Assembly (NCBI GenBank): GCA_022705745.1
Contig: JAKJDW010000004.1
Location: 3,614 to 67,613, forward strand
Origin: Patescibacteria group bacterium
GTDB lineage: Bacteria > Patescibacteriota > Gracilibacteria > Absconditabacterales > Absconditicoccaceae
DNA: 64,000 nt
Direction of reading: 5' to 3'
This document shows positions 3,392 through 60,545 of this stretch, one piece after another; positions within the stretch are counted from its first letter, which is position 1; every line of letters begins with the position of its first letter. The notes under the pieces were generated by a model, which saw only the letters and a list, made by a program, of their open reading frames with translations, had not been told where the DNA came from and ran no database searches. The translations under genes and the position numbers were made by a program.

Positions 3392-3411
3392 CCACAAAGT
3401 TTTATTAAATT

Positions 3412-3500
3412 TATCCCCAGGTGGATCCCGCAATGTGCGGGACTAGCCCGAACCACCAACTTATCCCGCTGTATAGCGGGATTGCTCTATCCAATCTATC
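3412..3500 (-). pseudogene. Decayed copy of tRNA-Arg(TCT) carrying two GC-rich hairpin modules
   Basis: Aligns to the intact tRNA-Arg at 3528-3601 (shared ttatccccaggtgga...cgaaccaccaactta...ttgctctatcc). TCCCGCAATGTGCGGGA (3426-3442) sits in the T-arm, TCCCGCTGTATAGCGGGA (3464-3481) replaces the anticodon arm, and the 5' acceptor is lost. Confidence 0.6.
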
Positions 3501-3527
3501 TTTCTTCAACTTGTTGGTATGTTATTT

Positions 3528-3601
3528 TATCCCCAGGTGGACTCGAACCACCAACTTACAGCTTAGAAGGCTGTTGCTCTATCCGATTGAACTATGGGGA
3601 C
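3528..3601 (-). tRNA. tRNA-Arg (anticodon TCT)
   Basis: RC GTCCCCATAGTTCAATCGGATAGAGCAACAGCCTTCTAAGCTGTAAGTTGGTGGTTCGAGTCCACCTGGGGATA. Anticodon stem ACAGC/GCTGT, loop CTTCTAA. G1-U72 wobble. Confidence 0.85.
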
Positions 3602-3630
3602 TTGAGACATACCTGGTAAATAATTTAATT

Positions 3631-3705
3631 TGGACCCTATCGGAGTCGAACCGATTACCTCCTGCGTACAATCCCGCAATTCTGCGGGACTAGCCAAGTG
3701 AGAAT
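3631..3705 (-). pseudogene. Decayed copy of tRNA-Ala(TGC) with a GC-rich hairpin replacing part of the anticodon and D arms
   Basis: The first 47 nt match the intact tRNA-Ala at 3979-4053 with one mismatch (tggaccctatcggagtcgaaccgattacctcctgcgt[a/g]caa). TCCCGCAATTCTGCGGGA (3672-3689) then substitutes for aacaggcgctcta, and the 5' acceptor is degenerate. Confidence 0.6.
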
Positions 3706-3978
3706 TTAACACTTAACAAATCACTCGTAATTCATTATCCTATCAATGTGTCACGATTTTTTCAAATTAGACTCAATTTTCAAAGCTATTTTTTTATTTT
3801 CACATTCCAAATATCAAACCAGCTTTAAATCATTTCACATTCTTTTTGTAGAATAAACTTTTCAGTCCAAATGTTGTTGGTATCTTATTTTTACATTCCC
3901 CGTAATTCATAAATAGAATCTCGTTCCCTTTAATAAATACACATAGAACATAAAATAAAGATTGTTTTGATTTAAATT

Positions 3979-4053
3979 TGGACCCTATCGGAGTCGAACC
4001 GATTACCTCCTGCGTGCAAAACAGGCGCTCTAAGCCAGGTGAGCTAAGGGCCC
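3979..4053 (-). tRNA. tRNA-Ala (anticodon TGC) with the G3:U70 identity pair
   Basis: RC GGGCCCTTAGCTCACCTGGCTTAGAGCGCCTGTTTTGCACGCAGGAGGTAATCGGTTCGACTCCGATAGGGTCCA. Loop TTTGCAC. G3 pairs with T70. Confidence 0.9.
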
Positions 4054-4097
4054 ATATAAGTTTGGACACAACTTCTACAACAATTTGTTTTACTATT

Positions 4098-4190
4098 AAC
4101 CGACTACCTCCTGCGTGCAATCCCGCAATTCTGCGGGACTAGCCAGGTGTGACTTTAGGAATCCCGATCTATCGGGAAGCTAAAGGGCCC
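4098..4190 (-). pseudogene. 5'-part copy of tRNA-Ala(TGC) interrupted by two hairpin modules
   Basis: aaccgactacctcctgcgtgcaa + TCCCGCAATTCTGCGGGA (4121-4138) + ctagccaggtg + tgactttaggaa + TCCCGATCTATCGGGA (4162-4177) + agctaaagggccc. The downstream flank catataagttt is also duplicated from the intact gene. The T-arm and 3' acceptor are missing. Confidence 0.55.
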
Positions 4191-4199
4191 ATATAAGTT

Positions 4200-4282
4200 T
4201 GGGGAGAGTGTGATTTGAACACACGTAGCCGTGAGGCGTCAGATTTACAGTCTGATGCAATTGACCGCTCTGCCATCTCCCC
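4200..4282 (-). tRNA. tRNA-Tyr (anticodon GTA), long variable arm
   Basis: RC GGGGAGATGGCAGAGCGGTCAATTGCATCAGACTGTAAATCTGACGCCTCACGGCTACGTGTGTTCAAATCACACTCTCCCCA. Anticodon stem TCAGA/TCTGA, loop CTGTAAA. Confidence 0.9.
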
Positions 4283-4497
4283 TTTTTATACTTTATATAG
4301 TGAATACATTCTACCATTTCCCCCCAATAATATTAGCCGTGAGGCGCCCCGATACATCGGGGTGCAATTGACCGCTCTGCCATCTCCCCTTTTTATACTT
4401 TATATAGTGAATACATTCTACCATTTCCCCCAATAATATTAGCCGTGAAACGCCCTGATACATCGGGGTGCAATTGACAGCTCTGCCAATAAATAAT
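4283..4497 (-). repeat. Two tandem ~107-bp units, each a 52-bp upstream spacer plus a tRNA-Tyr 5' half whose anticodon stem-loop is replaced by a CCCCGATACATCGGGG hairpin
   Basis: Unit 1 is 4283-4389 and unit 2 is 4390-4497 (more decayed). agccgtgaggcg[CCCCGATACATCGGGG]tgcaattgaccgctctgccatctcccc compares with the real gene agccgtgaggcg[TCAGATTTACAGTCTGA]tgcaattgacc.... A third, weaker copy lies near 4527-4575. Confidence 0.7.
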
Positions 4498-4863
4498 TTT
4501 CTACTATTCTCTTCAAAATAAAATTAACTATGAGGTGTCCAGGTGGATCAGGGGACTATTGACCACTTCTTCGTATATTTTAAAACAACAAATACAGCAT
4601 AATATTGTTGCTTATAAGTATGACAATTATGTATATGAAAATAAAAAGCAAAATCAAGTGTTTTTATATTATTTTATCATTTTTTCGACAGAATGGTTGT
4701 TTTTAATCTCGCTTTGGTTCTATATGCTTGTTTAAAAATGAGAAAAAAAGATGGACTTTCCTAGCTTTACAAGCAAAAGAAAAAGTGAGGCGAGGTTTTT
4801 ATTTGGATTTGATTGATAAAAAAAGTTACTTTAAAATTATTTTATGATATCAAAGTAGCATAA

Positions 4864-6009: not shown

Positions 6010-6083
6010 AGCGGGTAACGGGACTCGAACCCGTACGAACAGAGCTGAAGTCTGCTATGCTACACCAACTACATCATACCCGC
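6010..6083 (-). tRNA. tRNA-Gly with anticodon UCA, the decoder of reassigned UGA codons
   Basis: RC GCGGGTATGATGTAGTTGGTGTAGCATAGCAGACTTCAGCTCTGTTCGTACGGGTTCGAGTCCCGTTACCCGCT folds as a cloverleaf. Acceptor GCGGGTA/TACCCGC, D stem ATGT/GCAT, anticodon stem GCAGA/TCTGT, loop CT-TCA-GC, T arm ACGGG/CCCGT. G1:C72, C2:G71, G3:C70 and U73 are the bacterial Gly identity set. Confidence 0.85.
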
Positions 6084-9164: not shown

Positions 9165-9535
9165 GTAGAAAGTTACGGCAAGTTTGTAAAGTTACAAATT
9201 ATTAATCTTTATAAACTTTACGACAAAAAAGTTCTTCCCTTGCGAAGCGAAGCGGAGTCCCGATGTATCGGGAGAGGGAAGTTGCTCTATCGTAGTTGGG
9301 GGTTGTTGGGGTAAAACCCCCACCTACCCGCCCGTAGCCCCGCAATACTGCGGGGCGGGGCGGGGGAGAACAACCTCCCCAAGGGGAGGAATTTTATCTC
9401 CAAACTTTACTAATCTGTTTGTCCACAGAATTGCAGGACTATACAATATTAGAATTTTTTTCTTTCCTACCACTCGCTCCGTAGGACTACGGGACGGGTG
9501 GTAGGGGATGCAACTTTTAAACTTAATAAACAACT
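9165..9535. repeat. Composite cluster R1: AT-rich word repeats followed by nested GC-rich palindromic modules
   Basis: gtttgtaaagttacaa...ataaactttac, then cttcccttgcgaagcgaagcggag[TCCCGATGTATCGGGA]gagggaag, ctctatcGTAGttggggg[ttgttggg]gtaaaacccccacc, cccGTAGccccgcaatactgcggggcggggcggggg, cctccccaaggggagg, ctaccactcgctccgtaggactacgggacgggtggtag. Confidence 0.9.
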
Positions 9536-14735: not shown

Positions 14736-15115
14736 GGTGCTGTTCTTGCAACCCCGCTTGTGGAAATTTTTAAGCTACAGGTAGGAGAAACAGCAAATTG
14801 TCTCCCTTTATCAAAGGGAGCTGGTCTCCCCCGCTGAATAGCGGGGGTAGAGGGATTTATATACAGCTTGTCATTTCGACTAAGTGAACGAAGTGAACAC
14901 ACGGAGACAAAGAAATCCTTCCCTCGGGGGAAGCTGTTCTAATGTAGTTGGGGGTAAAACCCCCACCTAGCTACACAAACAACCTCCCCCAAGGGAGGAA
15001 CTTTTGTCACAACAAACTGTCTCCCTTCATAGAAGGTAGCTGCTCTCCCCGCCCCGCTTAAACAGCGGGGCAGAATTGCGGGGATAGAGGGATTTAACAT
15101 CCTCCCATTTCTTGC
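14736..15115. repeat. Composite cluster R3 of GC-rich palindromic modules
   Basis: ttgtctccctttatcaaagggagctggtct, cccccgctgaatagcggggGTAGagggatttatataca, gtcatttcgactaagtgaacgaagtgaac, cttccctcgggggaagctgttctaatGTAGttgggggtaaaacccccacctagctac, cctcccccaagggagg, ctgtctcccttcatagaaggtagctgctct, ccccgcttaaacagcgggg, cagaattgcgggg. Confidence 0.95.
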
Positions 15116-15173
15116 AATATAAATAAATCTATAGACTTATAAAAAACAAAAAAATCTCCCCAAAGGAAGACTC

Positions 15174-15392
15174 TTATAGGCTATTTCGTTCATCTACTGA
15201 AATTCAGATATATTCAATTATACAATTTACAACTCATCTTGAAATATCTTTTCATCAATGATTTGGGAATGGAACTCTATATCCATCTTTCATCATAAAC
15301 ATATGTTTTCATCACACATAAGGTCATTCAAATCAAAGTTTTCTTAATTTCTTCACCAATTCTCTAGCATTAATAGGTGTAACTTTAGGCAT
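15174..15392 (-). CDS. hicA: Type II toxin HicA (mRNA interferase)
   Basis: MPKVTPINARELVKKLRKLGFEGPYVGGKHMFMMKDGYRVPFPNHGGKDISRGVVNCIIEYIGISVDERNSL matches the HicA pattern (..el.k.L...GF......GSH..f...g..v.vP.H.gkdi..G.l..il...gi). The ATG overlaps the hicB stop (TATGCCTAA). Confidence 0.85.
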
Positions 15393-15624
15393 AACCAAAC
15401 TCTTTATTCATAGTAAAATCCTTTTTTAAGTCTATTTTCCCATTTTTAATATCATCTATCATCAATGTTTCTATTAAATTGATCATATTTCATCTTGCAT
15501 CCTCAAAACTATCTCATTGAGTAAAATATCATGGTTTATTTGGGATTTTTGCAATAACCACTCAATCTTCATCTTTGTAATATACTGTTTGGTCTAATAA
15601 GGAATGAATATAATTTGTGAACAT
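15385..15624 (-). CDS. hicB: Type II antitoxin HicB (UPF0150-like)
   Basis: MFTNYIHSLLDQTVYYKDEDGVVIAKIPNKPGYFTQGDSFEDARGNMINLIETLMIDDIKNGKIDLKKDFTMNKEFGYA. HicB-like block y.a.iP..pG..tQGdt.eEA..n. It lies directly upstream of and overlaps hicA. Confidence 0.8.
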
Positions 15625-15721
15625 TTTCCCATTAGTTACTGGATAAAACTAATCCAATTATAAACATAAAAGCTATTTTTTCAAGCTGAAAATAAATCTT
15701 TGAATCAATGAACAAATTTCA

Positions 15722-16345
15722 GTTGTATTTGTCATTTCGACTAAGTGAACGAAGTGAACGCACGGAGACAAAGAAATCCTTCCCTCGGGGGAAGTTGCTC
15801 TAGTGTAGTTGGGGGTAAAACCCCCACCTAGCTACGCAAACAACCTCCCCCAAGGGAGGAACTTTTGTCACAACAAACTGTCTCCCTTCATAGAAGGTAG
15901 CTGCTCTCCCCCGCTGAATAGCGGGGGTAGAGGGATTTATATACAACTGTCATTTCGACTAAGTGAACGCACAGAGAAATCTCTTTACAAAAAATGTCTC
16001 CCTTTATCAAAGGGAGTTGTTCTAATGCTGCGCCCCGCAGAATTGCGGGGGTAGAGGGATTTATATACAACTGTCATTTCGACTAAGTGAACGAAGTGAA
16101 CGCACGGAGAAATCTCTTTACAAAAAATGTCTCCCTTTATCAAAGGGAGTTGTTCTAATGTAGAGGGATTTATATACAGCTTGTCATTTCGACTAAGTGA
16201 ACGCACGGAAAAATCCACTTTTAACAAACTGTCTCCCTTTCGCGAAACAAAGTGGAGTCCTCTCCCGATATATCGGGATCTCACTTTGTTCGAGATCTAT
16301 CGGGACAAAGGGAGGTGACAATTTTCCCCCACCCTTTTTCCTTTT
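15722..16345. repeat. Composite cluster R4 of GC-rich palindromic modules, including about 125-bp tandem units and a three-level nested hairpin
   Basis: Starts with a 181-bp copy of the R3 segment (15731-15912). Then come repeated units GTAGagggatttatatacaactgtcatttcgactaagtgaacg(aagtgaacg)cacggagaaatctctttacaaaaaatgtctccctttatcaaagggagttgttctaatg. The nested element is at 16229-16316. Confidence 0.95.
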
Positions 16346-16403
16346 CCCACATACCACCAAAATAATACTTTTCAACAGATGGCAGAAAGATCTCCATTTT
16401 TAT

Positions 16404-16431
16404 TTGCAATTTAATTTTTTTTAGTTATAAT
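16404..16431 (+). promoter_or_regulatory. Promoter TTGCAA-16-TATAAT of candidate sRNA copy A
   Basis: TTGCAA at 16404-16409 and TATAAT at 16426-16431, inside a 42-nt block (atctccatttttatttgcaatttaattttttttagttataat) identical to 17103-17143. Confidence 0.55.
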
Positions 16432-16437
16432 CATCTC

Positions 16438-16497
16438 TGTATCAATATAGAGAAGGGATCCGAAAAGTGTTAGTGCTTTAGGTACCTTCTTTTTTTT
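16438..16497 (+). ncRNA. Candidate about 60-nt small RNA (copy A), convergent with the 3' end of NYN gene A
   Basis: Long stem-loop gagaagggatccgaaaag-TGTTAGTG-ctttaggtaccttct followed by T8. The loop and inner stem are conserved with copy B, while the outer stem differs but stays complementary. Confidence 0.45.
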
Positions 16498-16508
16498 GTT
16501 CAGAAATT

Positions 16509-17003
16509 TTAATGAGAAATGTAATGTTTAATATTTATTAAATAATCAAAGTTTTCGTTCATCAAATCATTATATAGTGAAGATGCATATTTTTTGTTTG
16601 GGAATAATATTTTTAGAAATCTTTGTTTTTTGATTAAAAAATCTATGAGTATTTTGAAATCTCAATCTCACGAAACTATTAATATTTTATCAAATTTATC
16701 CGCCTCATCCAATAACTTTGCCATAACATGAAAAATTAAATCACTATCTATATTTCATTTTTTATTGGTCTCCATAAGTAATTGCTGTTTTTTGAAAACC
16801 ACAATAAATCATGCCTCTTGTAATTTAGTATACAATCGATTATTTTCATCTTGCATATAACCTATAAAATAATATGCCTTTTTTATTTTATATTTATCAA
16901 AAAGATAGATTCTCAATTTACTAAAATCTACTGACCATCACTCAGACCTTGTTCATAAATGTAAATTTTGACCATCAATATAAGCGATATTATTCTCTTT
17001 CAT
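16509..17003 (-). CDS. NYN-domain (LabA/DUF88-like, PIN-fold) predicted RNase, paralog A
   Basis: 164 aa: MKENNIAYIDGQNLHLGTRSEGWSVDFSKLRIYLFDKYKIKKAYYFIGYMQDENNRLYTKLQEAGFIVVFKKQ...KKGNIDSDLIFHVMAKLLDEADKFDKILIVSGDGDFKILIDFLIKKQRF. NYN hallmarks IDGQN, KGNID.D, SGDGDF. Confidence 0.85.
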
Positions 17004-17115
17004 CTTTCAAATAAAATATCAAATAAATGTTTCTTTATCTCTACACAAACTCCCAATCCAACGCCCAAACTTCCTGACCGCACCTCACCGACAATACTTT
17101 TATCTCCATTTTTAT

Positions 17116-17143
17116 TTGCAATTTAATTTTTTTTAGTTATAAT
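17116..17143 (+). promoter_or_regulatory. Promoter TTGCAA-16-TATAAT of candidate sRNA copy B
   Basis: TTGCAA at 17116-17121 and TATAAT at 17138-17143, identical to copy A. Confidence 0.55.
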
Positions 17144-17149
17144 GATATT

Positions 17150-17207
17150 GTTATCACGACGAAAGAGATTCCAAAAAGTGTTGGTGCTTTAGGACATCTC
17201 TTTTTTT
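17150..17207 (+). ncRNA. Candidate about 60-nt small RNA (copy B), antisense to the last codons and stop of NYN gene B
   Basis: agagattccaaaaag-TGTTGGTG-ctttaggacatctct followed by T7. The outer stem AGAGAT/ATCTCT replaces GAGAAGG/CCTTCT of copy A. The NYN-B stop codon (17189-17191) lies in the 3' arm. Confidence 0.45.
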
Positions 17208-17710
17208 GTTTGTTTAAAATACTCAATTTTTTTACGAATATCAAATAAACTTAAATTGATACCGTACTGGGGTTTAATGCTTTTATATAAAGATGAATAT
17301 TTATTGTTGGGGAATAAAATATTCTTAAAAATATTCTTTTGAATAAGATATTTTACCATCTTTATGTAATCTCAATCTCATGATACTAATACAATTTTAT
17401 CAAATTTTTTATTTTCAATAATTGTTTTCATGGTCTCAAAAACAATGTCTGTATCGACATTTCACTTTTTCTTTCCTTCTAAAGACTGTGAATGCTCTCT
17501 AAAATATACTATAAATCAAGCTTTTTGCAAACTTTCGTATAAAGTTTGACACTCTTCATTTACATATCATAAAAAATAATATGCCGTTTCTACACAAAAT
17601 TTATCTTTTAAGTATTGCCTAAATCTTTTGTAGTCCATATTCCATCATGCACTTTGTAATCATAAATGTAAATTTTGACCATCAATATAAGCGATATTAT
17701 TCTCTTTCAT
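17189..17710 (-). CDS. NYN-domain predicted RNase, paralog B
   Basis: 173 aa: MKENNIAYIDGQNLHLGLQSAGWNMDYKRFRQYLKDKFCVETAYYFLGYVNEECQTLYESLQKAGFIVYFREH...KKGNVDTDIVFETMKTIIENKKFDKIVLVSGDGDYIKMVKYLIQKNIF.... The first 17 codons and the 5' leader (76 nt) are identical to paralog A. Confidence 0.85.
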
Positions 17711-17742
17711 CTTTCAAATAAAATATCAAATAAATACTTCTT

Positions 17743-18114
17743 TTACTTTATAAATCTAAAATACTCCATCTTTTTATTTCAAAAATTTATAAGCAATCAA
17801 ATTTTAACCTTATATACTTCCAAATAATTTATTAATTGCGCTTTATTTACATCTTCTATTTTTGTGGTTGCCTTTAATTCAACCATAATATCTTCGTCTA
17901 CCAAAAAATCTACCCTTCTATTTCATACATGTGTCCCATCATAATGAATTTGCATATTTTTTTCTCTCTCAAAAGTTAATCCAGCCTTTTGAAACTCTAA
18001 CAATAAGGCCCTTTGATAAACAACTTCTGGGAATCAACATCACAGCTCATTGTGTACCTTCATCGCACAACCTATTATTTTATATGTAATATCTCATTTG
18101 TAAAAATCATTCAT
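17743..18114 (-). CDS. GxxExxY protein (PD-(D/E)xK nuclease superfamily)
   Basis: 123 aa: MNDFYKGDITYKIIGCAMKVHNELGCGFPEVVYQRALLLEFQKAGLTFEREKNMQIHYDGTHVGNRRVDFLVDEDIMVELKATTKIEDVNKAQLINYLEVYKVKIGLLINFGNKKMEYFRFIK. GxxExxY here reads G-F-P-E-V-V-Y. Confidence 0.85.
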
Positions 18115-21394: not shown

Positions 21395-21885
21395 AAACAT
21401 CATCTCAAACTCACCAAACCTAGCCCCCCTTAGCAAGGGGGGTAGGGGGGATCCGTCCACAACCAACTGTCTCCCTTTTTCAAAGGGAGCTGCTCTATTG
21501 TAGTAGTGGGATTTCTCCCCGCATAGCCCCCTTCGAACGAAGTGAAGCCCCGATTTATCGGGGAGCAAGGGGGGTAGGGGGGATCCGTCCACAACCAACT
21601 GTCTCCCTTTTTCAAAGGGAGCTGCTCTATTGTAGTGGGATTTCTCCCCACCTAGCCCCCTTCGAACGAAGTGAAGCCCCGATTTATCGGGGAGCAAGGG
21701 GGGAAGGGGGGATCCGTCCACAACCAACTGTCTCCCTTTTTCAAAGGGAGCTGCTCTATTGTAGTGGGATTTCTCCCCTTTTTCAAATTAACCATCTCCC
21801 TCATTAAATGAGAACTAGCTAAAGAAATCCTTCCCTTGGGGGAAGTTGTTCTATCGTAGTTGGGGGTAAGTATCCCCGGTTTCAA
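21395..21885. repeat. Composite cluster R6: about three tandem copies of a ~130-bp unit of GC-rich modules plus extra modules, just upstream of the S-layer-like gene
   Basis: Unit starts at 21433, 21565 and 21694 (periods 132 and 129 nt): gcaaggggggtaggggggatccgtccacaaccaactgtctccctttttcaaagggagctgctctattGTAGtgggatttctcccc.cctagcccccttcgaacgaagtgaagccccgatttatcgggga. Ends with cttcccttgggggaagttgttctatcGTAGttgggggtaag. Confidence 0.95.
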
Positions 21886-22509
21886 GCAAATTTGAAAAAC
21901 AAGTTTGAAGTAACATTTTGTATAACATGTGCTGTCTATACTCCTATAGACTAGCTACGAAACCTACACAAAATATATCTCCATATATTTAATGTAATGT
22001 TAAGGATCTACACGGTGTAAATAAACTAATTTGTAGGATGTGTTGGACTATCAAAACACAAATAGCGATAAAGATCAAATCTCTTTTTCCCCGTAGGTTT
22101 AGGAAAGGTGAAACCGACCAATACCTGTTATCTAAATATGTCTATGTAGACCAACAAATAACCGATCTACTCATCGTATCTCCATACGATAAGACCGATA
22201 AGGAAGTGGTAGCTTTTTCAACGAAGATTGCAAGACAAATGTAGACAGATTTTTACAAACAAAAAAGAGATACAAGATATCTTTCTTTGCATAAACCTGT
22301 GAACAAATGTGCTATAGACCTACGCTAGAAAAGCTTTGCCCTTCTGTATGGCTATACGAATCAGATGACAAATCGTGACAGCTTTGGGACTAGTGTTACA
22401 GTAAAAAAAAGAAAAAAATTAGCTTTAATATCAATCAAGGACTGTGTTTTGGAAATGGGAATCGTATTGTCCATTTTCGCTTGCCTTTTCATCGTTTTGG
22501 TATGTGATT

Positions 22510-22681: not shown

Positions 22682-24541
22682 CTATCTCCTCATCCTTACT
22701 AATACTAACCAAACAATAAACAATCCTAACAAAACATACTTAATCCAACTTCCTTCTGCATGCAAATAAACCCCAAATTTCTGTGCTAATTCGGACATGA
22801 AATAGATGTAATTCAACAACAACTTTTCTGGCCAAAGTCGAATTCCCCATGGAAGTGCTTGGAACAAAACCGTACTAATAAACCCATAAATCATCACTAC
22901 CGCAACAATCGGAACTACAAGAAAGTTCGCAATAATTCATGTCAAATTTGTCGTTCCCATAAAAAACAACATCACAGGCAAAACTCCAATCGTAGCTCCA
23001 ACCGTAGGAGTAACAAACTCTTTGAGAAATTTCTGAAATCATGTTTTGAATAAATTTTTTTTCTTTTTGGAAGTAATGGTGGTTTGTTTTTCGTTATTAG
23101 CTCACGGTTTATTGAAATAACTTACACAATTTTCTATCAATTTTCAAAAATAAATTATTCCTATAATAGCTGAAAAACTAAGCAAAAACCCGACATCATA
23201 AGCCAAAAAATACGGATTTATGATCAACATGACAATGAATGCAATAGACATCGCCCTCCAAATATTGATCTCTTTTCACCAAAAAAGTGCCAACATTCCT
23301 AGTCATCACATCACTGTTGCTCTAAAAACCGAGCTGTCTAGTCAACAAATCATGGAATACAAAATAATTGTCAGCAAAATTACCGCATTTCTCACATAAA
23401 AAGGCAGAAAAAATAAAATCGCTCACAAAAAAACTACTATCATAATAATATTTCATCAGCTAACCGCGATAATGTGGACAAGTCACGATTTCACGAATCA
23501 TTGATAATCGTCTGGCGGAATCTGCGATCTATCTCAAACCAACATTCACAAAACCAATCCAGCTTGTTTATTTTCTCCGTAGGCAGATACTACCATCTTT
23601 TGCAAGCCCTTCCTAATTTTCTGAATAAAAGAAATCTTGCTTTTGCAATTCTGCTCTGAAAGAGAATGTAAGTTCTCATCATTACCTTTTCCAGAAAAAT
23701 TGTCTCCCTTTATCAAAGGGAGCTGCTCTCCCCGCACCGCCCCGCAGTATTGCGGGGCTACAGGAGGGTAGAGAGATTTTTTTAATCCTTTAGTCCCCGA
23801 AAGACTGTGGAGCGGAGCTAAAAAAGGAGGATAAATTTGAGCCACAAGCGAGACATTCTTCCCTTGGGGGAAGTTGTGTGCGAAGCTAGATGGGGGTAAG
23901 AAATCTTCTGTTTCAAAAACATCATCAGCAAAATTATGATATTCACATTCATCCTTGAAAACTAAATAACTTTGCCCATATATCGTACCATAAAACCCTT
24001 TCATCATCAGCCATTTGGAGTAATTGAACTCATAATCAAATAGTCATGACAAGCTCGGTTTGCTGACAAAATCATTCCATTGCTTTTGAAAATCAAAAAT
24101 ATTTCCCGCTCCCGTATAAGCTAGATCCACCCTTCAATTTAGCCACAAAATATCTCAAATTTCAAATTTTCTTGAAGAAATTAAAAAATATTCGCGCCCA
24201 GCATTGTCTTGGAAAATGTATTTTTGATAAGAATAAATATCGGAAACAATACCCGTTCCTACAAAATATTTTCAAACAGGTCAGTCCATATCACGCGAAA
24301 TTCTTCATTCTAAATTGGGCAAAGATTTGATATCCTGATCGTACTTATAATTTTTGACAAAAATAGACAGAATAGAAATTAGAAATGCTAATGTAATTAA
24401 CAAGGATGTACGAGCAGTATTTTTGAATTTTTTAACAATAGAATGTCAAAGTAATAATAGAATCAACAGCAACAATGCTAAAAAAACATTCTCAAAAACC
24501 GTTAAAACAAATACAAATATCGCAAATGATATTATGAACAT
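22682..24541 (-). CDS. comEC: DNA internalization competence protein ComEC/Rec2 (619 aa) with an in-frame palindromic-element insertion
   Basis: MFIISFAIFVFVLTVFEN...SKWLMMKGFYGTIYGQSYLV... [insert] ...AGLVLGMLVGDRSQIPPDDYQGFVKSGLVHIIAVSGGNIIMIVVFLGAI...AYDVGFLLSFSAIIGIIYF...GATIGVLPVMLFFMGTTNLTGIIANFLVVPIV. ComEC blocks LG.r..i.....F..sG..Hi.AvSG. The 1860-nt frame is continuous. Confidence 0.85.
23699..23905. repeat. Cluster R8: GC-rich palindromic modules inside the comEC reading frame
   Basis: attgtctccctttatcaaagggagctgctct, ccccgcaccgccccgcagtattgcggggCTACagg, agggtagagagattttttta, cttcccttgggggaag. On the coding strand these read ...FPQGKNVSLVAQIYPPFLAPLHSLSGTKGLKKSLYPPVAPQYCGAVRGEQLPLIKGDNFSG... 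with no stop. Confidence 0.9.
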
Positions 24542-25590: not shown

Positions 25591-25682
25591 ATGAATGAAT
25601 TAAGGTTAAAGATTCTAATTCCTTGATAAGGTATATAAACAATGGGGAATATGGATTTGGGCTTCAGGTGGAAGGAATAACA

Positions 25683-25822
25683 AGCTGTCTCCCTTTTGCA
25701 AAGGGGGCTGCTCTAATGTAGAGGGATTTAATATTCTCTCCACTTTTGCAGCCCCAGCCCGTAGCCCCGCAGTATTGCGGGGCGGGGCGGGGCGGGGTCA
25801 AACAGTACCCGGGTGGTAGGGC
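25683..25822. repeat. Composite cluster R10
   Basis: agctgtctcccttttgcaaagggggctgctctaatGTAGagggatttaat, cccGTAGccccgcagtattgcggggcggggcggggcgggg, gtacccgggtggtaggg. Confidence 0.9.
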
Positions 25823-34469: not shown

Positions 34470-34715
34470 GAAAAAGTATTAAGTGGGAAGTCCATCAAGT
34501 AACAAGTTTATAAAGTTACAAGTCGATGACTATTCCTCTTAAAAAAGAGGGCTAAAACTTTATTAAAAAAATTCTTCCCTTGGGGGAAGCTGTTCTGATG
34601 TAGTTGGGGGTATTACCCCCACCTAGTCCCTCATAAATTCGGGACGCCACAACCTCCCCAAGGGGAGGGATTTTATCTTAAGTCTTATGCACTTTGAACT
34701 TTTAACTTTAAGAAC
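34470..34715. repeat. Composite cluster R12 (AT word repeats flanking GC modules)
   Basis: caagtaacaagtttataaagttacaag, cctcttaaaaaagagg, cttcccttgggggaagctgttctgatGTAGttgggggtattacccccacctag, tccctcataaattcggga, cctccccaaggggagg, gcactttgaacttttaactttaagaactt. Confidence 0.9.
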
Positions 34716-38215: not shown

Positions 38216-38665
38216 TTGCCTCCCTTCAAAGAAGGGAGCTGCTCTAATGCTATGCACCGCTTGCCCCGCTTAAACAGCGGGGCAGAATTGCGGGGCTACA
38301 ATTTATGGGGATTTAGGCCACAAATAGAAAAAACAAAAAATTGTCTCCCTTTTGCGAAACGAAGTGGAGTCCTCTCCCGACACATCGGGATCTCACTTTG
38401 TTCGAGATCTATCGGGACAAAGGGAGCTGTTCTTCCGCATCTCTTGCAGCCCCGCAGAATTGCGGGGCTACAATTTGTTGGAATTTAAGCCATAAGTAGG
38501 AGAAACAGCAAACTGTCTCCCTTTCGCAAAGGGAGCTGTTCTTTTAGAGGGATTTAGTGTATTCCACCACACAGAATTGCTTGACTCAAGAAAGAGAATT
38601 ATCCCTGTTTCTACTAGTCATGTCCTTCGCCCTCCCGTAGTACTACGGGAGGGCTCGAGGACGAC
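38216..38665. repeat. Composite cluster R13, including a second copy of the three-level nested hairpin (38341-38427)
   Basis: ttgcctcccttcaaagaagggagctgctctaatg, ccccgcttaaacagcgggg, cagaattgcggggCTAC, ttgtctcccttttgcgaaacgaagtggagtcctc[tcccgacacatcggga]tctcactttgttcgagatctatcgggacaaagggagctgttct, ccccgcagaattgcggggCTAC, GTAGgagaaacagcaaactgtctccctttcgcaaagggagctgttct, cctcccGTAGtactacgggagg. Confidence 0.95.
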
Positions 38666-60165: not shown

Positions 60166-60545
60166 ATCCCCTTTTTAAGGGGTTACTCTATCGTAGTTGG
60201 GGGTTGTAGTTGGGGATTGTCAGGAATTACTGGGAAGAAAAACCCCCACCTACCCCGCAGTATTGCGGGGGAGAACAACCTCCCCCAAGGGAGGAACTTT
60301 TGTCACAACATTATTGCCTCCCTTTGAAAAAGGGAGTTGGTCTTCCCGATTTATCGGGATAGAGGGATTTATTTACATCCCCCTTGACTACGGAGTTCTC
60401 CGTAACGAGCAAGGGAGATGCTTATTAGCTTTTAATAAATCCCCCTTAATCCCCCTTATTAAGGGGGATGTTTGTTAGCTTTTAATAAACCCCTTAACTA
60501 CGAAATTCTTCGTAGCGAATAAGGGAGAGGTAGGAGACTTTCCTC
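60166..60545. repeat. Composite cluster R15
   Basis: tccccttttTaaggggttactctatcGTAGttggggg[ttgtagttggggattgtcaggaattactgggaagaaaa]acccccacctac, cccgcagtattgcggg, cctcccccaagggagg, ttgcctccctttgaaaaagggagttggtct, tcccgatttatcgggaTAGagggattta, tcccccttattaaggggga, ctacggagttctccgtaac, ctacgaaattcttcgtag. Confidence 0.95.

Follow-up and report, generated by a model that had tools for sequence, protein, structure and literature searches.

A tandem array of disrupted tRNA-Tyr copies

The DNA considered here is a stretch of 64,000 nt (in the following called the window) from the genome of an Absconditabacterales bacterium. Identical or near-identical proteins occur in anaerobic digester metagenomes and in assemblies named Candidatus Absconditabacterales. 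The window contains a tRNA cluster with the order tRNA-Gly(UCA), open reading frame (ORF), tRNA-Tyr, tRNA-Ala, tRNA-Arg, tRNA-Glu and infC, into which a small gene for a GIY-YIG nuclease is embedded. Directly upstream of the tRNA-Tyr gene lie tandem truncated copies of this gene, in which the anticodon arm is replaced to the nucleotide by a GC palindrome. These copies, called units, are the subject of our analysis. The Tyr part of the cluster comprises the following features:

4200-4282, minus strand: intact tRNA-Tyr (GTA), the parent gene (ARAGORN; Rfam, 60.9 bits; sequence)
4283-4389, minus strand: unit 1, 107 nt, directly upstream of tRNA-Tyr (sequence, alignment)
4390-4497, minus strand: unit 2, 108 nt, an older copy (sequence, alignment)
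about 4498-4590, minus strand: unit 3, the oldest copy, degenerate, reading ...GGTCAATAGT-CCCCTGATCCACCTGGACA-CCTCATAGTTAAT... (62% identity to unit 1)

On the minus strand the tRNA-Tyr gene reads TTGCA-TCAGACTGTAAATCTGA-CGCCTCACGGCTAC, with its 17-nt anticodon arm at 4239-4255. Unit 1 reads GGGGAGATGGCAGAGCGGTCAATTGCA-CCCCGATGTATCGGGG-CGCCTCACGGCTA, followed by a 51-nt spacer, the same sequence as stands before the gene. It is composed of the tRNA 5' part (4363-4389), the palindrome CCCCGATGTATCGGGG (4347-4362), a piece of the variable arm (4334-4346) and the spacer (4283-4333). The 16-nt GC palindrome occupies the slot of the 17-nt anticodon arm. On the 5' side of the hairpin unit 1 equals gene nt 1-27 exactly (27 nt), and on its 3' side 13 nt are likewise identical to the gene. 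A perfect 69-nt repeat is formed by 4256-4324 and 4363-4431. The folding energy of the palindrome is -9.2 kcal/mol, compared to -2.6 kcal/mol for the anticodon arm. Unit 2 consists of a spacer (4390-4439), CGTTTCACGGCTA (4440-4452), the palindrome CCCCGATGTATCAGGG (4453-4468) and a cut-down 5' part (4469-4487), and it differs from unit 1 by four substitutions, one of which falls within the hairpin (CCCCGATGTATCAGGG).

A previous sequence-only reading had proposed that a GC hairpin exactly replaces the anticodon arm with both junctions intact, and that two tandem units of about 107 nt carry the 5' part of tRNA-Tyr at 4283-4497. Both proposals hold when the minus strand is read directly (107 and 108 nt), and the promoter-like string TATATAAAGTATAAAAA indeed adjoins position +1. 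The supposedly identical 52-nt spacers turned out to be 51 and 50 nt long and to differ by one G. The acceptor 5' strand that had been assigned to both units is complete in unit 1, while unit 2 lacks its first 8 nt.

Neither ARAGORN nor Rfam called the units as tRNA, even at E <= 5; only 4200-4282 was called. The units have neither a T arm nor a 3' acceptor strand and hence not the complete cloverleaf of a functional tRNA gene. Tandem Repeats Finder missed the array, since there are too few units and the gene interrupts them. The two-unit arrangement was found again in an independent assembly (L256) and a one-unit allele in another (L255), such that the array is not an assembly artefact. The spacer moreover carries an older remnant of a tRNA 5' end, GGGGAAATGGTAGA (12/14 matches, p = 0.0005), which indicates that the array was built up as the 5' part of the gene was duplicated time after time.

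Disrupted copies of the neighbouring tRNAs

The neighbouring tRNA-Ala and tRNA-Arg genes are accompanied by disrupted copies as well:

4098-4199, minus strand: truncated 5' copy of tRNA-Ala with two palindromes, TCCCGATAGATCGGGA (4162-4177) and TCCCGCAGAATTGCGGGA (4121-4138) (sequence)
3978-4054, minus strand: intact tRNA-Ala (TGC) (ARAGORN; Rfam)
3624-3705, minus strand: 3' copy of tRNA-Ala (sequence alignment)
3528-3601, minus strand: intact tRNA-Arg (TCT) (ARAGORN; Rfam)
3405-3510, minus strand: truncated 3' copy of tRNA-Arg, downstream of the gene (sequence; strict search, see below)

In the tRNA-Arg copy, 800 nt from the Tyr units, the anticodon arm ACAGCCTTCTAAGCTGT is exactly swapped for ATCCCGCTATACAGCGGGAT (3463-3482), and the T loop holds a second palindrome block, GGCTAGTCCCGCACATTGCGGGA (3426-3448). 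In the 3' copy of tRNA-Ala, TCCCGCAGAATTGCGGGA (3672-3689) stands in for the 3' strand of the D stem together with the 5' strand of the anticodon stem. Comparison of the latter palindrome with L028, L127, L128 and L129 (handles of this type denote loci from other genomes) showed its loop in both orientations: some genomes have AGAATT or AGCATT, others AATTCT, AATGCT or AATACT. From the sequences, such a flip-flop is what would be expected of inversion within a perfect inverted repeat.

The palindromes form a dispersed and exchangeable family

The palindrome CCCGATNNATCGGG is present in nine copies in the window, compared to 0.02 expected. The window holds 61 GC hairpins, mostly within repeated intergenic mosaics that are filled by CCCGATNNATCGGG, a sister type CCCGC-N(4-6)-GCGGG and a few others. 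Short palindromes repeated far beyond chance, intergenic and clustered in mosaics are the mark of repetitive extragenic palindromes (REP) and bacterial interspersed mosaic elements (BIME). Many of the palindromes have TAG, CTAG or CTAC beside them; the palindromes of the Tyr units and of the Arg anticodon slot do not.

The positions taken by the palindromes can be followed as slots. The slot in front of TAGAGGGA is empty at 16133 and 38519, filled by a CCCGC-type hairpin at 14828, 15908 and 16033 and by a CCCGAT-type hairpin at 60344. The anticodon slot of the tRNA-Arg copy contains ATCCCGCTATACAGCGGGAT in the window, L127 and L268, ATCCCGACTAATCGGGAT in L264 and ATACCGCTGTACAGCGGTAT in L128. 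In the T loop of this copy, the slot is filled by TCCCGCACATTGCGGGA in the window and by CTGCCGATAGGCAG in L268 and stands empty in L264. Since slots are variously empty or refilled both in paralogous repeats and in orthologous copies, hairpin-for-hairpin exchange is a general property of these elements. This shows that the palindromes are discrete, exchangeable modules. Across the loci from the candidate phyla radiation (CPR), 12 of 15 CCGAY palindromes lie within 400 nt of a tRNA, for a background of 21% (p = 2e-6).

The mosaics of the window resemble BIMEs (9250-9500, 14770-16320, 21420-21890, 23695-23916, 25660-25820, 34560-34680, 38217-38660 and 60170-60470) and are composed of about six GC hairpin types and common linkers such as GTCATTTCGACTAAGTGAACG and TAGAGGGATTTATATAC. 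One of the hairpin mosaics adjoins two tandem repeats of about 645 nt (16390-17036 and 17102-17743), each of which codes for a paralogue of about 165-173 amino acids starting MKENNIAYIDGQNLHLG (ORFs 16509-17003 and 17189-17710). A metagenome pattern scan with GGTCAATTGCANNCCG gave only chance matches inside protein-coding genes. A search for a Y1 transposase within the 64-kb window gave none. Beside the homologous tRNA cluster of L129-L132 there is a 131-amino-acid Y1_Tnp ORF (IS200/IS605 or RAYT-like, i.e. resembling REP-associated tyrosine transposases). It lies about 1.0-1.3 kb upstream of the nuclease ORF (L129 2740-3135) and is followed by the hairpin GCGTGGGATTTTAATCCCGCGC, which contains ATCCCGC.

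The arm swap recurs in other CPR genomes

A scan of species-representative genomes with the 19-mer of the tRNA-Tyr D arm yielded 119 loci, mostly from CPR genomes. A strict search over 902 kb containing 369 tRNAs, in which a foreign block had to be bordered by a 10-nt flank on the left and a 6-nt flank on the right, gave 11 swapped copies. As all of them adjoin and are co-oriented with their parent tRNA, and as nearly all blocks fold as GC hairpins, the swap is not due to chance. Overall, arm-swapped Tyr, Arg and Ala copies are present in at least eight other CPR genomes. Swapped Arg copies occur in L049, L069, L128, L028 and L264 and swapped Ala copies in L014 and L067; nearly full-length arm-swapped copies are present in L049, L028 and L129. 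The partial tRNA-Tyr copies carry the following replacement blocks:

L064: GTCCGATAGGAATCGGAC
L038 (two copies): TCCCGACCGCAGTCGGGA
L097 and L104: CCCGCGGTAAACCGGGG
L109: TCCCGCTAAAGCGGGA

A core TCCCG...CGGGA is common to distant CPR lineages. We rejected a mutation of the anticodon arm into a palindrome in situ: the TCCCG core replaces unrelated stems (Tyr TCAGA, Arg ACAGC, Ala CCTCG), and one core in place of unrelated stems means that the blocks are of foreign origin and not anticodon arms altered by mutation. In L067 the disrupted Ala fragments belong to another tRNA-Ala type than the functional gene, a mismatch in sequence that suggests import or replacement.

Partial tRNA duplications of other types occur as well. 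In L083 (5030-5320, minus strand) a 5' copy of tRNA-Tyr stops in the anticodon loop (CTGTA|), and a GC-rich sequence of about 180 nt separates it from the intact gene that follows. This partial duplication is of a different kind, possibly an attachment site or intron remnant. In L021, L023, L032, L052, L061, L066, L073 and L120 the 3' end of the CPR tRNA-Tyr (17-21 nt) is exactly repeated 110-310 nt downstream, in L032 as a tandem repeat unit with GC hairpins. Small insertions at tRNA 3' ends thus appear to be common in the CPR group.

A mobile gene for a minimal GIY-YIG nuclease

The genome uses genetic code 25, in which UGA is read as Gly: UGA falls at a conserved Gly of DnaJ (YYEILGV) and of MurG (GGGTGGHVFP), and both motifs need Gly at this position. 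Almost no long ORFs exist under the standard code and many appear once UGA is taken as a sense codon. Gene calls made in the window with code 11 are therefore fragments, and a database lookup of the code-11 ORF fragments near the cluster found no entries. The gene at 6010-6083 that ARAGORN labels 'tRNA-SeC(tca)' is, given this code, tRNA-Gly(UCA). A mitochondrial origin, hinted at by the low GC content, the GC hairpins and the tRNA(UCA), was dismissed on account of UGA as Gly in DnaJ and MurG and the bacterial gene content. Read in code 25, the tRNA cluster contains:

3706-3951, minus strand: ORF for an 81-amino-acid GIY-YIG nuclease (UGA as Gly) of the minimal Slx1/UPF0213 type (tblastn; Pfam; PDB profile)

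The ORF is located between tRNA-Ala and its 3' copy, 330 nt from the Tyr units. Its product matches PF01541 with 28.9 bits (cut-off 22.6), and Y5, Y13, G15, R23, H27 and E60 are invariant in the family alignment. A search of PDB with a profile built from this ORF and its relatives returned UPF0213 (E = 1e-16), SLX1 (E = 4e-8) and I-TevI (E = 2.5e-3). This search was the informative one, the matches of a single-sequence PDB search being repeat proteins, which were set aside as spurious. The ORF fits the standalone Slx1-like group of GIY-YIG proteins (PMC1564403). The ratio of non-synonymous to synonymous divergence (dN/dS) of the gene across species is 0.07-0.3, which indicates that the protein is maintained by purifying selection.

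The gene is part of a cassette of about 350 bp (ORF and 3' Ala copy) that constitutes an insertion bounded by an approximately 48-nt repeat of the 3' part of tRNA-Ala. The cassette is present in the window, L127, L255-L257, L128 and L028, while L264 and L268 carry a cassette-less allele (Ala-aatttaaattatttaccagg...-Arg). Between the window and L127 the synonymous divergence (dS) of the nuclease gene is 0.074, compared to 1.27 for infC, 0.64 for rplT and 0.47 for DUF2202, and the nucleotide identity is 94.5% over 3400-4203 compared to 78-84% in the flanks. Such a low divergence with respect to the flanks is a signature of recent lateral exchange. A GIY-YIG ORF at the locus and a sporadic presence with lower divergence than the flanks are what characterizes a homing cassette. 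The data show that the nuclease cassette is mobile, being present or absent among relatives and recently exchanged between lineages. Tandem duplications of the nuclease gene together with a tRNA fragment occur in L255 and L104. Viral contigs were considered as carriers of the cassette; they gave four weak GIY-YIG matches, none of them near a tRNA.

In other genomes small GIY-YIG ORFs are found right at the disrupted tRNA-Tyr copies. In L097, L109 and L038 the swapped 5' fragment is separated from the intact tRNA-Tyr directly by such an ORF. In L104 it follows the gene and precedes a swapped 3' fragment, the whole arrangement being present twice in tandem. In L079, L043 and at the second ORF of L038 the Tyr 5' fragment is broken in the D arm by a common hairpin, CCACCGCCTTYGGCGGGG. 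Taken over the 119 loci, a hairpin-disrupted Tyr fragment is present in 6 of the 7 loci with a GIY-YIG ORF beside tRNA-Tyr versus 1 of the 112 without, and the type of disruption tracks the nuclease clade.

The L038 locus has a further peculiarity. Its intact tRNA-Tyr (4520-4640) sits within an extended inverted repeat of about 24 bp (gaatttcaatccttggtGCGCCGG...CCGGCGCACcaaggattgaaattc), and the variable loop of this gene is unlike that of the two flanking swapped copies. By its sequence, the locus gives the impression that a swapped tRNA copy received an insertion of a block of nuclease gene and tRNA.

History of the Tyr units

Relatives differ in whether they possess units. L075 and L022 have an identical tRNA-Tyr in a compact cluster with no copies, palindromes or nuclease gene, and L128 has no Tyr unit. 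The window, L127, L268 and L264 make up a subclade (infC at least 81% identical) in which the unit occurs; it therefore arose once in their ancestor. Among near-identical strains, L255 contains the older unit only, the window and L256 contain two units and L257 is a recombinant. The number of tandem units is hence a strain polymorphism, explained by unequal recombination. Unit 1 itself is most readily attributed to a recent event, either unequal recombination or gene conversion, that involved the gene and the unit next to it, as suggested by its 100% identity to the gene on both sides of the palindrome. Strain variants of the unit-2 hairpin are CCCTGATGTATCGGGG and CCCTGATGTATCAGGG.

Two observations on individual assemblies may be added. 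The functional tRNA-Tyr of L256 (2321) has C instead of T at the first position of the anticodon stem (CCAGACTGTAAATCTGA), giving a C-A mismatch. This C is the first base of the palindrome of the adjacent unit, and the variant could stem from the assembly or mark a short conversion tract from unit to gene. In several independent assemblies from this species and close relatives (L253, L254, L258 and L259), the sequence stops within the tRNA cluster, some 200 nt upstream of infC; the repeats of the cluster apparently break short-read assemblies.

Explanations for the disrupted copies

We tentatively favour, while giving it somewhat less than an even chance, the explanation that the units are dead tRNA-Tyr duplicates in a cluster that was colonised by a mobile nuclease cassette and that carries exchangeable REP-like palindromes. 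The units would be incomplete duplicates, derived from the 5' part of the gene, within the leader of a Tyr-Ala-Arg-Glu tRNA cluster. The cassette that colonised the cluster would code for a minimal nuclease of the Slx1/UPF0213 type, and REP-like GC palindromes with the core (A)TCCCG...CGGGA(T) would occupy or interrupt the arms of redundant tRNA copies. Breaks made by the nuclease in tRNA gene DNA, as with the phage enzyme SegB, may seed partial duplications and amplifications. The palindrome may enter by structure-directed exchange at the base of a stem-loop or cruciform. Once in place, it would keep the spare copy non-functional and would leave no more than 27 and 13 nt of unbroken homology to the gene. 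That the swap is so exact suggests that DNA is cut or exchanged at stem-loop bases, which would fit a structure-specific enzyme like Slx1. A bolder version of this idea appears distinctly improbable to us: an as yet undescribed selfish module of CPR bacteria, whose Slx1-like nuclease would cut at the bases of stem-loops or cruciforms such that palindromes move by 'cruciform swapping'. The swapped copies could then act as homology arms, immunity alleles or processing signals of the cassette.

The sequence-only reading had considered ordinary insertion an unlikely source of the swap. Further stem-loop swaps do exist, at the tRNA-Arg copy of the window and in other genomes, and this recurrence across Tyr, Arg and Ala copies and several lineages is not explained by ordinary insertion. 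Exchange at the stem bases, which had been suggested instead, is a reasonable proposal, while microhomology common to the junctions and the other palindrome copies, looked for as its trace, was not found. The dispersed palindrome family, the disrupted Arg and Ala copies, the GIY-YIG gene and the copy-number polymorphism had all been overlooked.

Several observations weigh against the favoured explanation. The 81-amino-acid protein is a bare catalytic domain without a DNA-binding module; the sequence-specific DNA-binding domain that is joined to the nuclease in I-TevI and Seg-type enzymes is absent from it. No nuclease ORF lies within or directly beside the Tyr units, and a search of the unit spacer for a trace of a deleted nuclease ORF gave nothing significant (p = 0.72-0.89). 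Swapped copies without a GIY-YIG ORF in the examined DNA are found in L064, L049, L069 and L014 and in the Tyr units of L264 and L268, and seven palindrome copies elsewhere in the window have no nuclease gene near them. The p-value of the association between GIY-YIG ORFs and disrupted fragments, 1.4e-8, counts related genomes as independent. Finally, the hairpin is kept at 15-16 of 16 positions across four lineages, compared to 61-75% identity of the spacers. Being the best-conserved part of the unit, the palindrome argues for some constraint or self-maintenance, and its conservation hints at a function that a pure relic model leaves unexplained.

The nuclease-free palindromes suggest a rival that we regard as a serious though rather doubtful candidate, namely autonomous REP-like elements that are moved in trans (e.g. 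by a Y1/RAYT-type transposase) or by template switching without involvement of the nuclease. Such elements would prefer to land in, or to replace, DNA that forms stem-loops, and dead tRNA copies would merely tolerate the hits. This would agree with the dispersal of the family in mosaics devoid of a nuclease gene, with slots that are filled, empty or swapped outside of any tRNA context, with the frequent adjacent TAG or CTAC, similar to the GTAG of REPs, with the Y1_Tnp ORF beside the homologous cluster of L129-L132, with the swapped copies lacking a nearby GIY-YIG ORF and with the enrichment of CCGAY palindromes near tRNAs across CPR loci. It is at odds with the absence of a Y1 transposase from the 64-kb window, the missing TAG or CTAC flank of the Tyr-unit palindrome and the strong ties of disrupted Tyr fragments to GIY-YIG ORFs and of disruption type to nuclease clade; in addition, we know of no REP that replaces a resident hairpin base for base. 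The conservation of the hairpin while the spacers diverge and infC reaches dS > 1 would instead be accounted for if the hairpin unit had a function in the tRNA operon or in the nuclease transcript and were maintained for it, an alternative that we hold to be unlikely. It might serve as a stable RNA stem-loop of the pre-tRNA leader or the mRNA end (stabiliser, processing punctuation or tRNA-like decoy) or as a DNA site for a dimeric protein. Paired changes in the stem (ATCCCGC/GCGGGAT to and from ATACCGC/GCGGTAT; in unit 2 a pair occurring as C-G, T-G, C-A and T-A), the closeness of the cassette palindrome to the nuclease ORF (12-45 nt from its start or stop) and the TCCCG...CGGGA core in distant CPR lineages point in the same direction. 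Yet decay is seen in the older units (units 2 and 3 as well as the distal ones of L127), most copies are truncated and unable to fold as tRNA, unit 1 folds as RNA no better than its shuffled sequences (z = 0.04), the copy number is polymorphic, and relatives with the same tRNA-Tyr manage without units. Perfect palindromes can also keep their pairing without selection, by self-templated correction at the DNA level.

That each unit forms a transcription unit of its own, with a promoter that gives rise to a small RNA resembling a tRNA half, is very unlikely. The 51-nt upstream spacer is duplicated with each unit and an AT-rich, TATA-like string adjoins position +1, as this view would have it. A sigma-70 consensus scan flagged no site in the unit spacer, though, and the best site by the same consensus matching lies upstream of the whole array:

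4599-4626, minus strand: sigma-70-like site TTGTCA-16-TATTAT, 10/12 matches (consensus match only)

The TATA-like string is conserved neither in the sister species L127 nor in L264, unit 2 lacks the supposed +1 region, an Rfam search with the units matched no family, and in unit-less relatives tRNA-Tyr directly follows an ORF, which leaves no room for a promoter of its own. Least credible of all, and largely refuted by the anatomy already, is that the partial copies are attachment-site remnants of an island or prophage that was inserted by an integrase and lost again. Partial tRNA repeats beside tRNA genes are indeed common in CPR loci, many of them 17-21-nt repeats of the 3' end. Integration at tRNA genes normally duplicates the 3' part of the tRNA, while the Tyr units derive from the 5' part and follow one another as a 107-nt tandem array without intervening cargo. 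The cluster moreover contains no integrase gene, and the palindromes would be left unexplained.

Relation to known systems

Genes for tRNAs are among the most conserved sequences of a genome and classic targets of mobile DNA. Here, spare copies of three tRNAs in several deep CPR lineages have lost an arm to members of a single palindrome family that fill its place exactly, often next to a minimal nuclease gene of structure-specific type that is itself exchanged laterally. If nuclease and palindromes were mechanistically linked, this would constitute a new route of structure-directed DNA exchange and a naturally occurring case in which a very small nuclease works on the DNA of tRNA genes within cells instead of phages. 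A conservative reading has practical consequences too: the findings would explain assembly breaks inside the tRNA clusters of these genomes, warn annotators about tRNA-like fragments and provide a tractable polymorphic locus for the spread of palindromic repeats in tiny genomes.

The closest relative with respect to the nuclease gene is SegB of phages T4 and T6, a GIY-YIG endonuclease of the phage tRNA cluster that is described to cut inside tRNA genes (PMC13096335; PMC2330249) and, in T6, to drive the tandem amplification of a tRNA-Tyr segment by homologous recombination (PMC13096335). As with SegB, a GIY-YIG gene is embedded among tRNA genes, and the tandem repeats of nuclease gene and tRNA fragment in L255 and L104, the presence/absence polymorphism and the lateral exchange parallel the SegB amplification. 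Unlike SegB, the gene resides on a cellular CPR chromosome and not in a phage, and the Tyr units hold no ORF. The protein, with 81 amino acids and a catalytic domain only, is nearer to UPF0213 and SLX1 than to the Seg and I-TevI enzymes. GC palindromes in place of arms are not mentioned for SegB in the available parts of PMC13096335.

The palindromes share with the REP and BIME elements of Proteobacteria, which are associated with RAYT/Y1 transposases, that they are short, GC-rich and intergenic, that they form mosaic clusters and that many of them, though not those of the Tyr units and of the Arg anticodon slot, have a short flank (here TAG/CTAC); in some relatives a Y1_Tnp gene lies near the cluster. 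They differ in being 14-20 nt long and nearly perfect, in sitting exactly in tRNA-arm slots and in the absence of a RAYT from the 64-kb window. A similar comparison can be made with the GC clusters of fungal mitochondria (yeast GC42, Neurospora PstI palindromes), which likewise are GC palindromes in an AT-rich genome with presence/absence polymorphism. For the yeast clusters 'merger and shuffling' and a constraint on the hairpin were described (PMC4478555), and GC-rich palindromes were found to flank tRNA genes (Yin et al. 1981, as cited in PMC4478555). In contrast to these, the elements described here occur in a bacterial host, are much shorter, replace arms in tRNA copies and are linked to a GIY-YIG gene.

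The t-elements of plant mitochondria, which act as tRNA-like processing signals, and the tRNA-like domain of tmRNA and YrlA, which mimic tRNA but have no anticodon arm, are tRNA-derived, keep part of the tRNA fold and cannot decode. The nearly full-length arm-swapped copies of L049, L028 and L129 resemble them in this respect. The units of the window differ from them by the missing T arm and 3' acceptor strand, and so are unable to build the minihelix that RNase P or RNase Z requires. Literature searches of partial coverage yielded no description of arm-swapped tRNA copies in these bacteria. The locus thus combines elements of known kinds, which are nuclease genes in tRNA clusters, REP/BIME palindromes and mitochondrial GC clusters including palindromes that flank tRNAs. 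Apparently new is the base-for-base replacement of an arm in spare tRNA copies, across tRNA types and CPR lineages and tied to a GIY-YIG gene.

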